From a virus (lineage: Duplodnaviria; Heunggongvirae; Uroviricota; Caudoviricetes), in IMG/VR virus record IMGVR_UViG_2802429240_000008: a stretch of DNA of 44,891 bases, one strand, 5' to 3'. Of this stretch, positions 1,422 to 17,443 are shown one piece after another. A program made the translations under genes and the position numbers. Position 1 is the first letter of the stretch. Each line of letters opens with the position of its first letter. Below the pieces are notes generated by a model. The model had not been told where the DNA came from and searched no databases. It saw nothing but the letters and a program-made list of their open reading frames with translations.

Positions 1422-3893
1422 TTAAAAATCAGCCTGATTCGGGATCAGTTTTTGCCAGATAGCTGAAACGTATTTTGCCTGGTAACGGGCGTCATCAAGT
1501 GCATTATGGCGCTCACCTTCGAATGGGATAGCAGTTCTGGCATCGAAGTCTATGGCTTTCCCCAGCTCAACGATTGTGCGTACATCGCGATCGTTGTGGT
1601 AGCGCCACGGGCAGGGGATCCCCTGTCGTTCGTATGAACGGCGTAAAATCACGTTGTCGAAGTTGGCTCCATTTCCCCAGACCTGGACAAAAAATTCACC
1701 GGAGTTTTCGTCGATAAATTCCCGCAATTGCAGTAGTGCATCATCTAACGGAATTTCATCGGTCAGAAGGGCAGATTGCGTCTCACGTGATTGCTTAAGC
1801 CACCATTTAATGACGTCACGATCAATGACTCCGCCAGCAGTATTCAGATCGATGGTCTTGCTAAATTCCGGCCCCATATCTCCGGTTTGTGGATCGAAAA
1901 ATATTGCGCCTATTGAGATAATCGGGGCATCGGGATTTTTTCCCATGGTTTCAAGGTCGATCATCAGATGAATCCCCGCTCTGCTGGTGGATGTGAGATT
2001 ATGATGACTGTTCGCCTTAATTAAGGGATCTGACGCCTCGCCAGTTTCACTATCGCTGGCATGATGCTGATTGCCGCCAGGGTTCTCCTTGTGCTGATGT
2101 GCAGTACCTTCCATTTCCTCCGGATCATTTTCCTGAACTTCAACCTGATTCTCTTCATCGAATGTTTCCTGGTATGTTGCGTCGCCCATCACCGCGCCAC
2201 AATCAGGGCAGCTACCGCCGCCGGTCTGACCGCAGGCGGTGCAGGCTTTTTCCGGCTCCTGTTGCGCTACTGGTTCAACCTGTTTCGTTTCTGGCTCGTT
2301 TTGTTGCGCATTTGGGCTGTTTTGTTCCGTTTTCTGGTCGTTCTGTTCCGATTCTTGCTGGTTCTGGTTTACAGAATCGCGGGTTTCAATCCCCTTCACC
2401 CATTTCGGATCATTCGGGTCGCTAATCCCTGCAACAAATTCTCCGCGAGAGGCAGCAAGCAACTTATCGGCGTCAGGCTGGCTGATATTGGCTGCCTGCA
2501 TAATTTTGTTTACTTCCTCAGCGGTAACTTTTACCGGCTCTGGTTGTGCGGTCGTGTCAGATGCACCAGTATTTTGTTGTGAACCTGAGTATGTACCGTT
2601 TTTGCGGGCAAAATATTCTTCTTTCGTGATTTCAGTAGCCCCTGCAGTCAGCGCCTTATTCAGACCAGAAAGTTTGTTTGCGCGACCATATTTTTCGCCA
2701 TCCTTATCTGTGAAGAGGAAGTAGAACGGCCCCTCACGCTCTACAGATGGTTCGACTTCCACTTTGCATTCGGTTTTTTCGTTGTCCGGAATTGCCGTTT
2801 CCACTGCATCAGTTTCTGGTACTGGCGACGAGAGAGTATCAGTTGCGCTCTGATTTGTTCCTTCATCTTCAAACACGCCCTTTGTAGTCAGGTATTCAGT
2901 AATGTATTTGTTCAGTGCCACAGGGTCTTTGTGAATGTCGATCGGACGTTCACGGACAAGGCCAAAAATAGTCTGGCGGTCGTAGCGAAGGGCATCAGGC
3001 TGTTTGCGCATTGATGCCGAGATACGCTTCCAGTCTTCGCGGTCGTTGTCGATAACTTCATTTTTTGCCCAGCGATGGATGCTGCCGTCAATGTTTCCGG
3101 CATCAATGTCACCAGGCCACAGAGCGTAGGCCAGTTCATCATCCAGTGTTTTCCATGTCTGTTTGTATTCGCGACGAATGGTGGCAGTGGCTGGGGGGAT
3201 TTTCGCTACTGAGTTTTCAGTGTTCTGCCGGTTGACTCTGGCGCAGGCAAGATCAACAACAGACGTGTATTTCCCGGTTTCTTTGCGTTCGGCTTCGCGA
3301 CGTTTTTTCCAGGTGCGTAATTCTGTCTGGATCTCAGGCCATTTTGCACCCGGCTTACATTTATGTTTAACCCACCCGATGGCGAGCAGCTTAAGCTCTG
3401 AATACATGACGTTAACTTCAGGCATTTTCATCAATGCCTCAACGATATGCCCGTCGAATGTTGCCATGTCCTCCTGCAGTAATTCCTGAGCACTAATCAC
3501 CATATCAACGGTGATGTTTTCACATGTACCGAACTTAACCAGGACCGCGTTCTGTACTTCAAGTGACAGCTTGTCAAAATTGACGTTCATCGGATCGGAT
3601 TCTGGTTCGACCGGAATAAAGGAAGCGGATTCCTCATCCCAGCGGTTTTCCTGCATATATTCGGTATCCCAGGAGTCGATAGCAGGACGGGGCATGCCGG
3701 GTTTATCCTCGCAGACAAGAAATTTATAAGCGCAGTCCTGAGCAGCCGGATATTGCTCCAGGAATTGCCAGGTAAATTTGGCACGGGCGCGGCGTTCGTC
3801 ACCGGCTTCAATGGCAGTGGCTACAGCAACTGCACCTTCTTCCTTTATTGCCTGTTCGTCCGGAATGGCGGCGCAAATAAAGACTTTACTCAT
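1422..3893 (-). CDS. RecE-like exonuclease (823 aa): RecE-type N-terminal/central region fused to a C-terminal DnaQ-like DEDDh 3'-5' exonuclease domain
   Basis: Central segment (DKLLAASRGEFVAGISDPNDPKWVKGI...ACTACGQTGGGSCPDCGAVMGDATYQETFDEENQVE) matches my memory of Rac RecE; C-terminal part has DEDDh motifs (MIDLETMG, WGNGANFDNV, HNALDDARY); ATG at 3891-3893 with upstream GAGG. Confidence 0.75.
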   Translation of the reverse strand: MSKVFICAAIPDEQAIKEEGAVAVATAIEAGDERRARAKFTWQFLEQYPAAQDCAYKFLVCEDKPGMPRPAIDSWDTEYMQENRWDEESASFIPVEPESDPMNVNFDKLSLEVQNAVLVKFGTCENITVDMVISAQELLQEDMATFDGHIVEALMKMPEVNVMYSELKLLAIGWVKHKCKPGAKWPEIQTELRTWKKRREAERKETGKYTSVVDLACARVNRQNTENSVAKIPPATATIRREYKQTWKTLDDELAYALWPGDIDAGNIDGSIHRWAKNEVIDNDREDWKRISASMRKQPDALRYDRQTIFGLVRERPIDIHKDPVALNKYITEYLTTKGVFEDEGTNQSATDTLSSPVPETDAVETAIPDNEKTECKVEVEPSVEREGPFYFLFTDKDGEKYGRANKLSGLNKALTAGATEITKEEYFARKNGTYSGSQQNTGASDTTAQPEPVKVTAEEVNKIMQAANISQPDADKLLAASRGEFVAGISDPNDPKWVKGIETRDSVNQNQQESEQNDQKTEQNSPNAQQNEPETKQVEPVAQQEPEKACTACGQTGGGSCPDCGAVMGDATYQETFDEENQVEVQENDPEEMEGTAHQHKENPGGNQHHASDSETGEASDPLIKANSHHNLTSTSRAGIHLMIDLETMGKNPDAPIISIGAIFFDPQTGDMGPEFSKTIDLNTAGGVIDRDVIKWWLKQSRETQSALLTDEIPLDDALLQLREFIDENSGEFFVQVWGNGANFDNVILRRSYERQGIPCPWRYHNDRDVRTIVELGKAIDFDARTAIPFEGERHNALDDARYQAKYVSAIWQKLIPNQADF

Positions 3894-4016
3894 TTTGTTT
3901 TAACCTCATTACAGATTTAAGGATGAACAAATCCCTGCCATTGCTGGCATATAAGAATCAAATCTGATGTATTCATTAAGCTGAATGTCGTATTGTGGCA
4001 GTTATTTTATTACTGC

Positions 4017-4238
4017 TCACCATGACTCTGCTTTTACAGGTAAACCATCACGACCAAGGAAGACTTTAATCATGGTTTCCTTAATACAGTGTTGTGTGGA
4101 AAAATCACGAATATAGAGCCGTTGTTTTTTAATGTTGTTTACCGAAGCAATATATGTTCTTCCTTTATGAATAACATAATCACCGGGAGTCACGCACTGA
4201 CGAGGAATCTCATCAGTTCCGAAGTGATGAGCAATCAT
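4017..4238 (-). CDS. kilR: Kil-like cell-division inhibitor (KilR family, 73 aa from second ATG)
   Basis: [22 protein letters not shown]... resembles Rac KilR as I recall it; the internal ATG at 4236-4238 has a GGAGA RBS 6 nt upstream, whereas the track ORF start at 4250 has none. Confidence 0.5.
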
Positions 4239-4412
4239 AATTATCTCCATTTTTACAAATGAACTTTGTTGATGCGGTGCCTGGTGCCTCCAGGTGACGT
4301 TAACCAGTTAACAATTAACGCCGGATACAGAGAATCCACCCATAACACTGTTTTTGGTTTTAACTGTTCCGCGTGCGCTTAGCCGCATTCACCGCATCAC
4401 AAAATTCACTTT

Positions 4413-4470
4413 AAAAAGGGCGGCAGAGCAGTCACGGAGTAAAACTGATTCCGCCAAACGCCACCAGAAA
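4413..4470 (-). ncRNA. dicF: DicF small RNA (53 nt, 4418-4470) plus 3' U-tract
   Basis: Reverse complement of 4418-4470 is TTTCTGGTGGCGTTTGGCGGAATCAGTTTTACTCCGTGACTGCTCTGCCGCCC, about 2 mismatches from the E. coli K-12 DicF sequence as I remember it, followed by TTTTT; located downstream of small dicB-operon-like ORFs. Confidence 0.8.
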
Positions 4471-4804
4471 ATTGATAACAGAGGGCGTTGTAGCGGGGGT
4501 GTCACTTAAGCGTATGGTCAACCTGACAACCCGGTGTCCTCAACGGGGAAGGAATAACCCCGCCATACTTACCGCCGCGCCATTTCGCGGAGTGCCACAA
4601 CCGGAAGCGCACGGTCGACGAAAATTTAACGACAGGCTATCTATGAACCAGCAACCTCGCCGTGCGCTTTCGTGTTATGGTCTGACTTTTCAGGGAAATA
4701 TCCTTTCAGTAAACTGTCAGTGCCGGATGCTCACCCGTGTCCGGCGCACGCACTCCACCTCACCCGTGGAGAACTCCTTAATCACCAACCCTCAGGAGGG
4801 TGAA

Positions 4805-5080
4805 ATGTCGACTGAAAATGATGAAATCATTAACTCCCTGATACGCCAGATTAATAATTTTGATAAAGCATTGCAGCATGCTGCGGCGCGTAGTGATATA
4901 ACTCTTTTAGCAATTTCATTTCTTGCATCTGTTATGGATAAAAATGAAGTCGTACGACAGAGTCTTGTTGATTATATCGACTCGCTTCAACCCGGCACTT
5001 TCAATCATGAGAGCTTCAATCATGAGAAAGAGCATGTTAAATCTGTTATTAATTCTCTTGTTTTGAATCAAAATAATTAA
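4805..5080 (+). CDS. Hypothetical protein (91 aa), AT-rich accessory gene
   Basis: ATG at 4805 preceded by AGGAGGG RBS; opposite strand to the surrounding leftward operon; the track ORF 4472-5080 extends upstream only because there is no in-frame stop and would run across dicF. Confidence 0.45.
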   Translation: MSTENDEIINSLIRQINNFDKALQHAAARSDITLLAISFLASVMDKNEVVRQSLVDYIDSLQPGTFNHESFNHEKEHVKSVINSLVLNQNN

Positions 5081-5378
5081 TGCTTTTTGTTGCAAAGTAA
5101 TTTTCAAGGGGTTCTATTCGAATCCCTTTCTTTTTCATTAACAAGCCAAACCCCTTATCAATGATGTTCATTAATTCCAGGAAGTATTTTTCATGCAAAT
5201 CCTGGTTATCAGAGAGTTGCTTCTCTTCGTACAACCCGATAAAGGCGCGACGCACGTTACCGGATATATTATCGATGGTTTCTTTTTCTACGGTACTCAG
5301 GTCAAGAGTCGCCAGTTGGGAACGAACTATATTCGCTGCCATTTCCTGGAATGGTATTGGTAAATCTTTAAATTCCAT
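5049..5378 (-). CDS. Hypothetical protein (109 aa from MEFKDL...)
   Basis: ORF in the leftward immunity operon; internal ATG at 5376-5378 has GAGG RBS; 3' end overlaps convergently with the 4805-5080 ORF by about 30 nt. Confidence 0.5.
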   Translation of the reverse strand: MEFKDLPIPFQEMAANIVRSQLATLDLSTVEKETIDNISGNVRRAFIGLYEEKQLSDNQDLHEKYFLELMNIIDKGFGLLMKKKGIRIEPLENYFATKSINYFDSKQEN

Positions 5379-5393
5379 CGTCAACCTCATCAG

Positions 5394-5609
5394 TCAGTAG
5401 TTTTCAATCACTCGTGAAACGTTTAATGCCGCGCTTTTTGCCAGAGTGGTAATATCCTGCTCCGCTGACGCCAGTTCTTTAGAGAGGCGCTCTTTATAGT
5501 CAGCAGCCCGCTTCAGGTCATTAATGGCGCGTATCTTCCCGCACATCCATTCGTAAATTTCATCATCGGTATAGCCTGGTGCGATGATGATGGGTTCTGG
5601 TTTCTGCAT
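5394..5609 (-). CDS. Small hypothetical protein (71 aa), YdfC-like position
   Basis: ATG at 5607-5609 with GAGGA RBS 8 nt upstream; third small ORF downstream of the dicA-like repressor. Confidence 0.55.
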   Translation of the reverse strand: MQKPEPIIIAPGYTDDEIYEWMCGKIRAINDLKRAADYKERLSKELASAEQDITTLAKSAALNVSRVIENY

Positions 5610-5638
5610 ACTGATTCCTCGCGGTGCTGCTTCGCTTA

Positions 5639-5767
5639 TCAGCCGTTAGATTTTGCCGAGCTGGAAAGCGCCTGTTTAAACTCACTGAAGCTGAGAGCTT
5701 CTTCGCCTTCGGCAAGGCCTTCGAAGTATTCTTCGTAAGCCTTTTCCATGATTGTGTCGAAATCCAT
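5639..5767 (-). CDS. Small acidic protein (42 aa, MDFDTIMEKAYEEYFEGLAEGEEALSFSEFKQALSSSAKSNG), YdfB-like position
   Basis: ORF below the track threshold found by manual translation of the minus strand; tightly packed between neighbouring minus-strand ORFs. Confidence 0.4.
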   Translation of the reverse strand: MDFDTIMEKAYEEYFEGLAEGEEALSFSEFKQALSSSAKSNG

Positions 5768-5768
5768 A

Positions 5769-5924
5769 TCACTCACCTGAGTTTCTTTCCAGCCAGCGAC
5801 GGGCACCATTTTCGGTTTTAAACGTTTTGCTTTTGGTATACGTCATCGCGGTGAACGTGCCGTCCTGGTTGGGAAACACGCCGCACACCAGAGATTCGTT
5901 GTTGCCAAGATCGATAGTATCCAT
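5769..5924 (-). CDS. Small protein (51 aa, MDTIDLGNNESLV...), YdfA-like position
   Basis: Internal ATG at 5922-5924 with GAGG RBS 6 nt upstream; the longer track ORF start at 6017 lies inside the predicted promoter/operator. Confidence 0.45.
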   Translation of the reverse strand: MDTIDLGNNESLVCGVFPNQDGTFTAMTYTKSKTFKTENGARRWLERNSGE

Positions 5925-5995
5925 GCTGACCTCATTTCCCCTTAACGCCGGGGGAGCGGAACTGTTTGCTGAGAACACCGTGCGGTGTCTTGATG

Positions 5996-6056
5996 GATGA
6001 TAATTTAGTTTTCTCATGAAAATTGGTCAAGAGTTTTTGGTGAGAAAACTCAATAT
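5996..6056 (-). promoter_or_regulatory. Candidate leftward promoter (TTGACC-N17-TAAATT on minus strand) flanked by two repressor-operator-like inverted motifs
   Basis: Minus strand reads TTGAGTTTTCTCACC..CTCTTGACCAATTTTCATGAGAAAACTAAATT; motif GAGAAAACT occurs at 6041-6052 and inverted at 6007-6016, and again at 6575-6588. Confidence 0.4.
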
Positions 6057-6116
6057 TTAATACAAAATAAAGCCAATACATTGAAATGTAAGGCTTTAAA
6101 ATTTGTGAAGGGGGGG

Positions 6117-6524
6117 TTATTGATGTTTGTTACGTTTGCGAGCTTCTAGTAGCTCGGTGAATAGGCGATTAAAATTCTCAACGCGGGCACGGAGTTCGCT
6201 GATTTGTGCTTGCTGCTCTGATTTTGGAAGTGCGCGATACAATCGCAACATCTCCAACTCATCTTCCGATAAGTCTAAGGCGCTGTTGAGTGCAACTGGT
6301 GGATCTGGTGTTTTATCCTCGTCACCAAACAGTATCCAAGTTGGTGAACATTGCAATACCTCAGCCAGGCGATGCAAATTTTGCCCGCGCGGGGCTGTAT
6401 GGTCGCTTTCCCATAGTGAAATTGATGAGCCAGATACGCCAGCAGCTTTGCTTAAATCGTTTTGACTTAAACCAACCTGTTTGCGTCTTTCTCTAATTCG
6501 TTGACCTAAAGTTTTCTCGTTCAT
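6117..6524 (-). CDS. dicA: DicA-like HTH (XRE family) prophage repressor, 135 aa
   Basis: N-terminal HTH (LGQRIRERRKQVGLSQNDLSKAAGVSGSSISLWE) and C-terminal LQCSPTWILFGDEDK...ELRARVENFNRLFTELLEARKRN closely resemble E. coli DicA as I recall it; same length; divergent from a Cro-like gene. Confidence 0.85.
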   Translation of the reverse strand: MNEKTLGQRIRERRKQVGLSQNDLSKAAGVSGSSISLWESDHTAPRGQNLHRLAEVLQCSPTWILFGDEDKTPDPPVALNSALDLSEDELEMLRLYRALPKSEQQAQISELRARVENFNRLFTELLEARKRNKHQ

Positions 6525-6601
6525 ATTTAGATATCTTAATAACCCTTGACTTGAGATTCCTTGAGTGATTACTATTGAGAAAACTCAACTTTGGAGGGGT
6601 G
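6525..6601. promoter_or_regulatory. Divergent promoter / operator region between the dicA-like and dicC-like genes
   Basis: Contains TTGACT (6546-6551) and the inverted repeat TTGAGAAAACTCAA (6575-6588) just upstream of the dicC-like start. Confidence 0.4.
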
Positions 6602-6829
6602 ATGTTTAAATCAGACGTAATTAATTTTTATGGGACGAAAGCCAAAGTAGCAAAAGCTGCTGGTGTTGATCCATCTGCTGTTTCTCAATGGGGGGAACTG
6701 GTTCCTGAAGGTCGCGCGATGCGCCTGCAAGAGGCATCCGGCGGGGAACTTCAGTACGACCCCAAAGTTTATGACGAATATCGTAAGGCAAAGCGGGCGG
6801 GGCGGTTGAACAATGAAAATCACCCCTGA
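6602..6829 (+). CDS. dicC: DicC/YdaS-type Cro-like regulator (75 aa)
   Basis: ATG at 6602 just downstream of GGAGG; C-terminal PEGRAMRLQEASGGELQYDPKVY...RAGRLNNENH resembles DicC as I recall it; divergent from the repressor gene. Confidence 0.65.
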   Translation: MFKSDVINFYGTKAKVAKAAGVDPSAVSQWGELVPEGRAMRLQEASGGELQYDPKVYDEYRKAKRAGRLNNENHP

Positions 6830-7364
6830 ACAGGTTTGTGAGGCTCTGGATGCCTGGGTATGCCGACCAGGAATGACACAGGAGCAGGCGACGATATTAA
6901 TCACGGAAGCATTCTGGGCTCTGAAAGAACGCCCGAACATCGATGTTCAACGCGTCACGTTTAATGATGGCGAGGTTGATCAACGGGCGCTGGGCGTTAA
7001 CCGGGTGAAGATATTCGAACGCTGGAAAGCTATCGACACCAGGGATAAGCGGGAAAAATTCACGGCGCTGATTCCGGCAATTATGGAGGCTATCCGGATC
7101 AGCGATTTCAGGTTGTATTGTGAAATTACTGACGGAAAAAGCATTACGTACATGATCGCCGGGTTAAACAAAGAATATGGCGATGTGGTGGAGTCCGGGC
7201 TGCTTTTTGCGGATCCATCTGTTGTGGAACGTGAGACTGACGAGCTTATAGAAAAAGCTATTGCTTTCAAGCATGCGTATCGTCAGCAATATCAATATTA
7301 CTTTGCAGATAAACAAATGTCTGCCAGGGGTTCGTATGAGTATCGATGCACTACGATGGGCTAA
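6813..7364 (+). CDS. Hypothetical early protein (183 aa), possibly YdaT/CII-like
   Basis: ORF directly after the cro-like gene with short overlaps at both ends; family assignment is tentative, from memory only. Confidence 0.45.
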   Translation: MKITPEQVCEALDAWVCRPGMTQEQATILITEAFWALKERPNIDVQRVTFNDGEVDQRALGVNRVKIFERWKAIDTRDKREKFTALIPAIMEAIRISDFRLYCEITDGKSITYMIAGLNKEYGDVVESGLLFADPSVVERETDELIEKAIAFKHAYRQQYQYYFADKQMSARGSYEYRCTTMG

Positions 7365-11248: not shown

Positions 11249-11371
11249 CCTGACCTGAGGCATTCACTACGGTAGGAATTGCGATGGCGGTGGCGCTGGT
11301 GGTGCATTCGATTTGCCGATGGGGATAAAAACGGTTTGCGGGAAAAGGAGAGTTAAGTAGAATTGCTGCGG

Positions 11372-11516
11372 GTGCTTGAGGCTATCTGCCTCGGGCATGA
11401 ACACCAACGGCAGATAGATAAAAGCCCCACCCGACTATAAATCGAAGTGAGGCCCCTATATGCTCGTCACATATAGATTGCCTCTTACGGACCGAAAGGT
11501 CAAGGAGAAGCAGGCT
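11372..11516 (+). promoter_or_regulatory. hok mRNA 5' leader with in-frame upstream start (mok-like, ATG 11460); expected location of an antisense Sok-like RNA
   Basis: GCTTGAGGCTATCTGCCTC resembles the 5' end of hok-family mRNAs as I recall it; 8-bp inverted repeat tatctgcc/ggcagata; in-frame ATG at 11460 gives a 70-codon ORF. Confidence 0.4.
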
Positions 11517-11672
11517 ATGAAGCAGCAAAAGGCGATGTTAATCGCCCTGATCGTCATCTGTTTAACCGTCATAGTGACGGCACTGGTAACGAGGAAAGAC
11601 CTCTGCGAGGTACGAATCCGAACCGGCCAGACGGAGGTCGCTGTCTTCACAGCTTACGAACCTGAGGAGTAA
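11517..11672 (+). CDS. hokD: Hok/Gef family type I toxin (51 aa)
   Basis: MKQQKAMLIALIVICLTVIVTALVTRKDLCEVRIRTGQTEVAVFTAYEPEE: single TM helix and conserved C-terminal Hok motif; appears to match HokD (RelF) from memory; AAGGAGAAG RBS. Confidence 0.85.
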   Translation: MKQQKAMLIALIVICLTVIVTALVTRKDLCEVRIRTGQTEVAVFTAYEPEE

Positions 11673-16633: not shown

Positions 16634-16946
16634 TTTACGGGACAAAAAAAATTCCTTAATACTGATAACTTGGCGCACTATACACACGTTCCTGAAGAAA
16701 GCTATAGTTTTTTGATGGGGTTGAAGATGGCTGGATGTCTAAAATAAACATTGCTTCATATGTTCAACTATGCGTTAATGATTGCGTCGGTTTGAAGAAC
16801 AGACGATATACGAAGTAGTTTACTAAAGCAGTTCTCATTTCAGGTGTTATTCACTTATTCCTTCTTTGAGTCTCTCCAATTAAGTACGAAGTCGTTTCTG
16901 TTATACAAACCATTTATGCCGAAAGGCTCAAGTTAAGGAATGTAGA

Positions 16947-17162
16947 ATGTCAAATAAAATGACTGGTTTAGTAAAATGGTTTAACGCTGATAAAGGTTTT
17001 GGCTTTATTTCTCCTGTTGATGGTAGTAAAGATGTGTTTGTGCATTTTTCTGTGATTCAGAATGATAATTATCGAACCTTATTTGAAGGTCAAAAGGTTA
17101 CCTTCTCTGTAGAGAGTGGTGCTAAAGGTCCTGCAGCAGCAAATGTCATCATTAATGATTAA
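16947..17162 (+). CDS. cspB: Cold-shock protein, CspA family (CspB-like, 71 aa)
   Basis: [53 protein letters not shown]...: canonical cold-shock domain; AAGGA RBS. Confidence 0.9.
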
Positions 17163-17443
17163 AATTCATAGTTTGTCTGTATACGATAACGAAGAAGGCT
17201 GATGCCTGAGTGGAGATACAGACAGAGTGGTGAATATTGGATCTCTTTAATAAAGAGTAAGGAGGTCCAATACATGAAACAATGGCCAGCATATTTGGTA
17301 ATAACTTAATCAGGAAAAGTATGCTAACCATTGTGGTGAAGTGCAGGTTTGCTGCATGAATAGTTTTACAGCAGAAGCTAACTGCTGGCATAGCAAAACA
17401 AAGTGCGTAAGTGGATGACTCTCACAAAAAGCACCACAATATT

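Follow-up and report, generated by a model that had tools for sequence, protein, structure and literature searches.

Which inhibitor of cell division follows the small RNA (sRNA) DicF in a phage genome where DicB seems to be missing, and do the two form one regulated unit? This question is raised by positions 4,017 to 4,470 of the Caudoviricetes record IMGVR_UViG_2802429240_000008 of IMG/VR, which we analyzed over its full length of 44,891 nucleotides (nt; hereafter the window). A sequence-only reading had placed on the minus strand a 53-nt DicF sequence with about two mismatches to that of Escherichia coli and a U-tract, followed by a Kil-like rather than a DicB-like gene, both apparently under one repressor. 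Our analysis indicated that the locus is very probably the early-left (recombination and host-takeover) operon of a lambdoid prophage of the Qin/PPompW type, controlled by a DicA/DicC immunity switch, in which a Qin head is joined to a Rac-type kil cassette, with a two-layer block of division as the expected outcome.

The sRNA was analyzed by cmscan on both strands of the window with 4,227 Rfam families. DicF (RF00039) was detected at 4418–4469 on the minus strand with 69.0 bits, compared to a gathering score of 48 (E=3e-13), and the match spanned model positions 1–52 of 52, placing the sequence within the family by the covariance-model search that had been proposed for it. Alignment over 53 nt with the K-12 reference dicF (NC_000913, 1649382–1649434) showed two substitutions, A10G (window 4461) and U20A (window 4451), and nt 21–53 were identical to K-12 DicF. 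The claimed length, number of mismatches and U-tract were all confirmed. It has been reported that K-12 DicF is a trans-acting, Hfq-dependent sRNA whose 3′ region pairs with the ribosome-binding site of ftsZ, thereby repressing ftsZ translation (PMC5069750), and that its 53-nt 3′ end is set by an intrinsic terminator (PMC5069750, PMC9438474). At the level of sequence, the corresponding hairpin and five U residues were present in the window, although the predicted fold of its allele departs from this hairpin (see below). Likeness of the region upstream of DicF to related prophages reached ~4808; the K-12 counterpart of its first 90 nt (4471–4560) is the precursor region that holds the 5′ processing site. 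By homology, the DicF of the window would bind Hfq, be processed at its 5′ end by RNase E and repress ftsZ.

The open reading frame (ORF) 3′ of DicF lies on the same strand after a gap of 179 nt. Its product of 73 amino acids (aa) matched NCBIfam NF008465, "FtsZ inhibitor protein", over residues 1–73 of 73 with 140 bits (cut-off, 92) and PHROG 294, "Kil protein for bacterial septation inhibition", with 113 bits. In the BLASTP comparison that had been proposed, it was 81% identical to KilR of the K-12 Rac prophage, including an identical stretch of 18 residues at the C-terminus, and gave no alignment with K-12 DicB (62 aa) at E≤100. Similarly, tblastn with K-12 DicB, PPompW DicB or YdfD gave no significant match within the whole 44.9-kb window. 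These results agreed with the claim that the next gene is Kil-like and not DicB-like. Here, "Kil-like" denotes the Rac KilR type and not lambda Kil, which has been reported as unrelated in sequence to Rac Kil (PMC3961180); an approximate lambda Kil sequence found no match in the window by tblastn, a result that was not relied on. A ribosome-binding site, GGAG, was located at 4245–4248, six nt 5′ of the ATG, and an alternative 77-aa reading is also open from an in-frame upstream ATG (4250). Z-rings are disrupted by KilR, an effect relieved by FtsZ overproduction, and higher levels of the protein also mislocalize MreB; its C-terminal region is critical for function and toxicity (PMC12482147). 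This region was conserved in the Kil of the window, for which the same action on Z-rings and MreB is predicted from the KilR literature.

Next, three-way alignments with K-12 Qin and Rac were employed to locate the boundary between the two modules. Window positions 4276–4560 were 97–100% identical to Qin, whereas from ~4275 downstream the sequence tracked Rac and not Qin, with 37 of 37 positions identical over 4239–4275 and 81% identity over kil. The closest overall backbone was that of the PPompW prophages of enterohemorrhagic E. coli (e.g., LC567822.1), which have intE, xisE, the exonuclease gene, DicF, the leader, ydfC, dicA and dicC in common with the window and were 94.6% identical over ~38% of window positions 1–25000. 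In PPompW, the slot after the leader holds dicB and a ydfD-like gene; in the window, it holds kil, and both flanks are near-identical. The swapped cassette of ~310 bp comprises kil, its ribosome-binding site and a 66-nt 3′ flank. Its upstream junction lies within ~4257–4280, where the leader stem ends on its 3′ side, and its downstream junction at ~3950, just before the hairpin TGCCAGCAATGGCA (3936–3949). As judged from these alignments, kil stands in place of dicB by a literal cassette exchange.

Comparison with the known systems further defined this mosaic. The DicA/DicC pair, ydfA, ydfB and, with two substitutions, DicF are shared with the dicBF operon of K-12 Qin in the same order and on the same strand. 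In contrast, kil takes the place of dicB and ydfD, two additional ORFs (113 aa, minus strand; 90 aa, plus strand) lie between ydfC and DicF, DicA and YdfC show only the identities given in Table 1, and the exonuclease, xis and int genes are intact in the window. Every component of the Qin-type operon is present save dicB and ydfD, making the locus a variant of that operon. With the kilS-kilR module of K-12 Rac, the window shares the KilR family, an identical ribosome-binding region, the structured leader and, directly 5′ of the leader, the same GGCGG...CCGCCC-U5 terminator of the sRNA. However, the Rac sRNA KilS scored 39 bits on the DicF model and is devoid of the ACUCCGUG loop, as opposed to the canonical DicF of the window, and the repressor is of the DicA type instead of RacR. 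No match to YdaE or RacC was found in the window by tblastn, RecE matched over residues 278–591 only, and recT was absent downstream. Thus, only kilR and the leader are common to the window and the full Rac module (RacR, KilS, kilR-ydaE-racC-recE-recT), and the locus is not a module of that type. Escherichia phage Evi (LR597642.1) carries a G10 DicF, the leader and kil, 99.3% identical over 544 nt, with the same type of exonuclease gene next; it differs from the window in having U20 instead of A20 and in its immunity region. In the Evi record, kil is annotated and DicF is not.

A leader of 174 nt follows the U-tract, extending to the ribosome-binding site of kil, and was kept in Qin (5′ of dicB), in Rac (5′ of kilR) and in the window. 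Its closing stem is formed by 4390–4412 (AAAGUGAAUUUUGUGAUGCGGUG) and 4257–4279 (CACCGCAUCAACAAAGUUCAUUU), the 23-nt arms enclosing three hairpins. The fold of the DicF-leader stretch (4225–4475) had an energy of −85.6 kcal/mol (z=−4.7), and no shuffle was equally stable. When 42 distinct homologues were aligned, two of the inner hairpins, as well as the closing stem, were found to carry compensatory changes. The leader has the same closing helix and inner hairpins as STnc100 (RF02076), a prophage-associated structured RNA, but scored 38.3 bits on this model against a gathering score of 47 (E=4e-6, full model 1–206), so that it cannot be filed as a member; its relatives elsewhere scored 30–46 bits. 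The ribosome-binding site of kil follows 9 nt past the leader stem, as in Rac. In K-12, a 72-nt form of DicF ends at an RNase III site 19 nt beyond the 53-nt end (PMC5069750, PMC9438474). Since this published end maps inside the 5′ arm of the closing stem, the stem is probably an RNase III site, cleavage of which would leave a kil mRNA with a short 5′ untranslated region (UTR).

The same stretch is recorded in relatives by the Prokaryotic Genome Annotation Pipeline (PGAP) as "DicB, missing C-terminus". A dicB remnant between DicF and kil was considered and rejected, as the stretch is the shared leader, which also stands 5′ of the Rac kilR gene; its DicB-like appearance stems from Qin, where an ORF beginning with GTG crosses the leader in the reading frame of dicB. 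The core of the leader also precedes terB/tciA in the P1-like phages P7 (L097, 2501–2616) and D6 (L098, 2501–2621), where no DicF-like sequence was seen 5′ of it. Therefore, the leader is a mobile 5′-UTR module whose use extends beyond dicB and kil.

We then analyzed how often DicF and kil are joined in this way. A diagnostic query of 461 nt was used, running from 90 nt 5′ of DicF through DicF and the leader to nt 139 of kil; on loci of the Qin type or the K-12 Rac type, its coverage necessarily stays below 80%. At least 80% of this query was covered in 135 of 5,426 complete E. coli genomes. The top 54 of these, including O121:H19 Shiga toxin-producing strains, ECOR29 and the enterotoxigenic strain TW11681, showed 100% coverage and at least 97% identity, followed by O145:H28 strains and ML35 with 93.6% identity. 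The number of complete genomes with the arrangement is thus at least 54 and may be as high as 135. In addition, 88 kil loci were collected from IMG/VR and GTDB genomes, a sample ranked by similarity to the Kil of the window. A DicF-family or KilS-type sRNA and the shared leader were found 5′ of kil in all 88, the leader lying between the sRNA terminator and the ribosome-binding site of kil. The sRNA was a canonical DicF in 43 loci, and a KilS-type or other head was found in the remaining 45. The sequence-only reading implied that the pairing is unusual; this was overstated, given these 88 loci and given that phage Evi and dozens of complete E. coli genomes have a canonical DicF followed by kil. 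These results indicated that a DicF-family sRNA 5′ of kil is the rule and that the combination of head and Kil allele varies. The genome-contig scan yielded 8 loci only, all on Escherichia/Shigella contigs or contigs of metagenome-assembled genomes, and is uninformative on spread beyond Escherichia. Two of the latter, L008 ("Proteobacteria bacterium") and L010 ("Candidatus Nanosynbacter sp."), carry a K-12 Rac-type KilS head, the leader and kilR, and are probably Escherichia prophage DNA that was mis-binned.

The heads themselves were diverse. A10 and G10 alleles were about equally frequent among the canonical DicF kil loci parsed, A10G being common among DicF copies adjoining kil, and at nt 20, U20A was found in the window only among the canonical DicF copies sampled. 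KilS, the sRNA in the 5′ UTR of kilR in K-12 Rac, has been described in a paper that makes no mention of DicF (PMC8175672). It resembles DicF in its 3′ part, and the K-12 copy (b4833; L003, 7411–7466, minus strand) is sub-threshold on the DicF model, where KilS-type heads scored 39–43 bits. Hybrid heads directly 5′ of Rac-type kilR, on the other hand, passed the DicF gathering score with 60.9, 49.9 and 49.3 bits. The hybrid heads at L076 2778–2829, L089 2778–2829 and L087 2770–2819 combine a KilS-like 5′ part with a DicF-like ACUCCGUG loop. From these sequences, KilS looks like a DicF that has diverged, and the hybrids like recombinant intermediates.

Other cargos were also observed behind the leader. 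An isrK sRNA and C4 antisense RNA module (Rfam, 64–80 bits), overlapped by a 283-aa ORF, lies between the DicF leader and kil at L045 2154–2342, L049 2154–2342 and L050 2158–2346. In L045 and L047, a Phd/YefM-like and RelE/ParE-like pair comes after the leader. This position behind the leader has the look of a hot spot for insertions.

The features of the locus are collected in Table 1; their coordinates and identities, as well as the junctions, the conservation and structure of the leader and the prevalence given above, were obtained directly from the sequences compared.

Table 1. Features of the DicF-kil locus and its surroundings in the window.
Feature	Position	Strand	Evidence
DicF sRNA gene, 53 nt, allele G10/A20	4418–4470	−	Rfam RF00039 and alignment with K-12 dicF
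U-tract TTTTT, tail of intrinsic terminator, directly 3′ of the GC-rich DicF stem	4413–4417	−	Sequence
Qin-type region 5′ of DicF, precursor part	4471–4560	−	Sliding identity, 97–100% to K-12 Qin
Structured leader	4239–4412	−	Sub-threshold RF02076, fold energy, compensatory changes
kil, KilR-family FtsZ inhibitor, 73 aa and stop	4017–4238	−	NF008465, PHROG 294, identity to K-12 KilR
Swapped cassette (kil, ribosome-binding site, 66-nt 3′ flank), ~310 bp	3951–~4270	−	Three-way alignments, PPompW annotation
DicA-type repressor gene, 135 aa	6117–6524	−	NF007257 238 bits, Pfam HTH_3, 57% to K-12 DicA
DicC/Cro-type regulator gene, divergent from dicA	6575–6829	+	NF007282 167 bits, Pfam P22_Cro
ydfA, ydfB, ydfC-like block	5394–5924	−	tblastn, Pfam DUF1391
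ydfA	5769–5924	−	98% to K-12
ydfB	5639–5767	−	100% to K-12
ydfC-like	5394–5609	−	56% to K-12
113-aa ORF between ydfC and DicF	5049–5390	−	PHROG 6937
Convergent 90-aa ORF	4808–5080	+	ORF list; hypothetical on this strand in relatives
Candidate sigma-70 promoter TTGACC-17-TAAATT, between dicA and ydfA	6002–6030	−	Consensus scan, position
823-aa exonuclease gene directly 3′ of kil	1422–3893	−	PF16473 220 bits, NF007259 partial, PHROG 2082 full length
Integrase (1–1131) and excisionase-like gene (1109–1357), end of the leftward gene string	1–1357	−	ORF list, synteny

The gene order is dicC and dicA (divergent), ydfA, ydfB, ydfC-like, DicF, kil, exonuclease, xis and int; all these ORFs are intact, and the stop codon of int lies at window position 1. 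As to the claim of one repressor-controlled operon, DicF and kil do share the strand of a DicA-type gene that is located 5′ of them and is divergent from dicC; the operon itself is assumed by synteny with K-12 dicBF, in which ydfA, ydfB and ydfC are likewise the genes 5′ of DicF. The DicC-type product was 71% identical to K-12 DicC over 6602–6823. The candidate promoter was the only minus-strand sigma-70-like site within 3800–6900. It occupies the position of the K-12 dicB-operon promoter, with the −35 region and the ydfA leader conserved with K-12. The 113-aa ORF has an N-terminus 75% identical to that of an equally placed PPompW gene. The 90-aa ORF, which showed no family match in Pfam, NCBIfam or PHROGs and is followed by a terminator-like hairpin at 5106–5128 on the plus strand, sits inside the leftward early operon where Rac has sieB. 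The middle part of the 823-aa exonuclease is RecE-like (39% to RecE residues 278–591) and its C-terminus is an Rv2179c-like 3′–5′ exoribonuclease domain (the Pfam match of Table 1); neither recT nor bet was found between this gene and xis. Elsewhere in the window, an Rfam sok antitoxin RNA at 11370–11519 on the plus strand (103.9 bits against 59) implies a hok/sok-type toxin–antitoxin locus in the prophage, like hokD of K-12 Qin, and a cspA thermoregulator at 16786–17227 on the plus strand (150.8 bits against 78) indicates a prophage cold-shock gene with a long 5′ UTR, as for cspB, cspF and cspI of Qin.

By analogy with these relatives, we propose the following course of events, in which the co-transcription of DicF and kil, their processing, their targets and the phenotype are extrapolated from the K-12 systems. 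When DicA repression is lifted, leftward transcription would run through ydfA to ydfC. Some transcripts would end at the DicF terminator and, after RNase E processing of the 5′ end, yield the 53-nt Hfq-dependent sRNA, the unchanged 3′ region of which would pair with the ribosome-binding site of ftsZ and lower FtsZ synthesis. Read-through would enter the long-stem leader, where a probable RNase III cut, as in the 72-nt DicF of K-12, would release the kil mRNA with its short 5′ UTR. Kil would then block Z-ring assembly and, at high dose, MreB organization. The outcome would be a two-layer division block, acting on both FtsZ synthesis and FtsZ assembly, from one transcription unit; DicF with DicB in Qin and KilS with KilR in Rac would follow the same logic.

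Several observations weigh against this course of events. In the covariance-model alignment, U20A costs the canonical DicF stem one pair, the single non-canonical pair in the hairpin. In addition, A10G shifted the predicted fold, calculated from equilibrium thermodynamics only, without co-transcriptional folding or Hfq: nt 6–12 pair with 46–52, and the canonical stem accounts for ~0% of the ensemble. The same alternative pairing of the 5′ seed (nt 6–12) with the 3′ strand of the terminator (46–52) was predicted for the G10 and G10/A20 alleles, U20A further weakening the canonical stem of the latter. Duplex prediction was also performed for the DicF alleles and KilS with positions −60 to +30 of ftsZ, in a leader that may differ from that of the host. 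For no DicF allele was the energy significantly below those of shuffles; shuffles equaled or undercut it in a fraction of 0.04 for K-12 DicF and 0.14 for DicF of the window. As the alleles were not separable from shuffles, this prediction was dropped as evidence, and the targeting of ftsZ rests on identity to the experimentally tested 3′ region of K-12 DicF. With regard to transcription, the promoter scan was purely consensus-based and gave no more hits in the region than were obtained with shuffles. The DicF terminator and the convergent 90-aa ORF lie between the candidate promoter and kil, inside the presumed unit, and could limit read-through into kil. Furthermore, KilS in K-12 is possibly transcribed from its own independent promoter (PMC8175672), which leaves room for an internal start of kil.

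Alternatively, the conserved element may be mainly a cis-acting gate, in which the terminator hairpin and leader throttle and process transcription into the toxic cargo and the trans role of DicF is secondary or specific to certain alleles. We regard this explanation as doubtful. It would fit the observation that what is invariant over the 88 kil loci is the stem GGCGG.AUCAG...CCGCCC, the U-tract and the leader, with the 5′ region and loop differing among DicF-type, KilS-type and hybrid alleles. Similarly, the leader core of P7 and D6 precedes unrelated genes without DicF likeness upstream, and the G10 allele is predicted to sequester its own 5′ seed. However, DicF-type alleles show no base change in the 3′ region that pairs with ftsZ, even at loop positions that a terminator would not need, and K-12 DicF acts in trans with Hfq (PMC5069750). 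Moreover, the cis and trans roles are compatible with each other.

It is unlikely that DicF and kil became adjacent through modular recombination only and are expressed independently, kil from an internal start, with no functional pairing. The junction is indeed a recombination scar between shared sequences, other cargos (isrK with C4, and the Phd/RelE-like pair) are inserted between leader and kil, and an independent promoter can give rise to KilS, as mentioned above. Nevertheless, the consensus scan showed no sigma-70-like site on the minus strand between DicF and kil (4238–4470), the ribosome-binding site of kil is spaced from the leader stem as in Rac, and the sRNA and leader were kept 5′ of every kil locus sampled. 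Finally, it is highly improbable that the locus is a decaying, non-functional remnant like defective Qin and Rac: K-12 Qin and Rac are cryptic prophages, the integrase gene is frameshifted in one related genome and the exonuclease gene in PPompW, and U20A is absent at nt 20 from the other canonical DicF copies sampled, but the whole ORF string is intact in the window, an identical Kil protein occurs in 28 IMG/VR contigs, and the same module is found in phage Evi, which was deposited as a phage genome.

We therefore retain the early-left operon with a Qin head and a Rac-type kil cassette as the preferred reading. A broader view can be put forward tentatively: the DicF-family sRNA and the STnc100-like leader may constitute a portable, RNase III-processed "launch pad" of lambdoid and P1-like phages for swappable toxic cargo (dicB, kilR, isrK/C4, a toxin–antitoxin pair, or terB/tciA), whose head recombines (DicF, KilS or hybrid), pairing different trans-targets with different protein inhibitors. 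If this is the case, A10G might act as a structural switch, masking the 5′ seed for xylR/pykA-type targets but sparing the ftsZ-pairing part.

Every component of the locus belongs to a known family, and Qin already offers a precedent for the logic of an sRNA with a protein inhibitor of division in a repressor-controlled early operon, as does Rac in a diverged form. DicF followed by kil is thus a frequent combination of parts from two known prophage modules and no new kind of system or mechanism. A full-text search found no paper describing the adjacency of DicF and kil or kilR, although the dicF and Rac papers of the 1990s may hold an earlier mention.

The annotation of such loci is affected by these results. 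DicF is unannotated in all related records inspected (five RefSeq E. coli loci and the records of phage Evi, 75/02 Stx and PPompW), phage Tritos being the only record listing DicF under a match. In PGAP records (e.g., L001, 4553–4636 and 4663–4884), the leader is given as a partial DicB pseudogene, the kil product is named "cell division protein FtsZ", and DicF is missing; this product name is misleading for kil.

For the biology of these prophages, the results indicated that DicF is not tied to DicB, as two unrelated inhibitors of division can stand behind the same sRNA and leader. Exchange takes place at the slot after the leader, and the locus exemplifies how cargo is swapped behind a platform of sRNA and leader that is itself conserved. 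The evolution of sRNAs is also concerned, with K-12 KilS as an apparent diverged DicF and hybrids that still pass the DicF model. The arrangement further bears on the DicF phenotypes of those pathogenic E. coli that have several dicF copies in different contexts.

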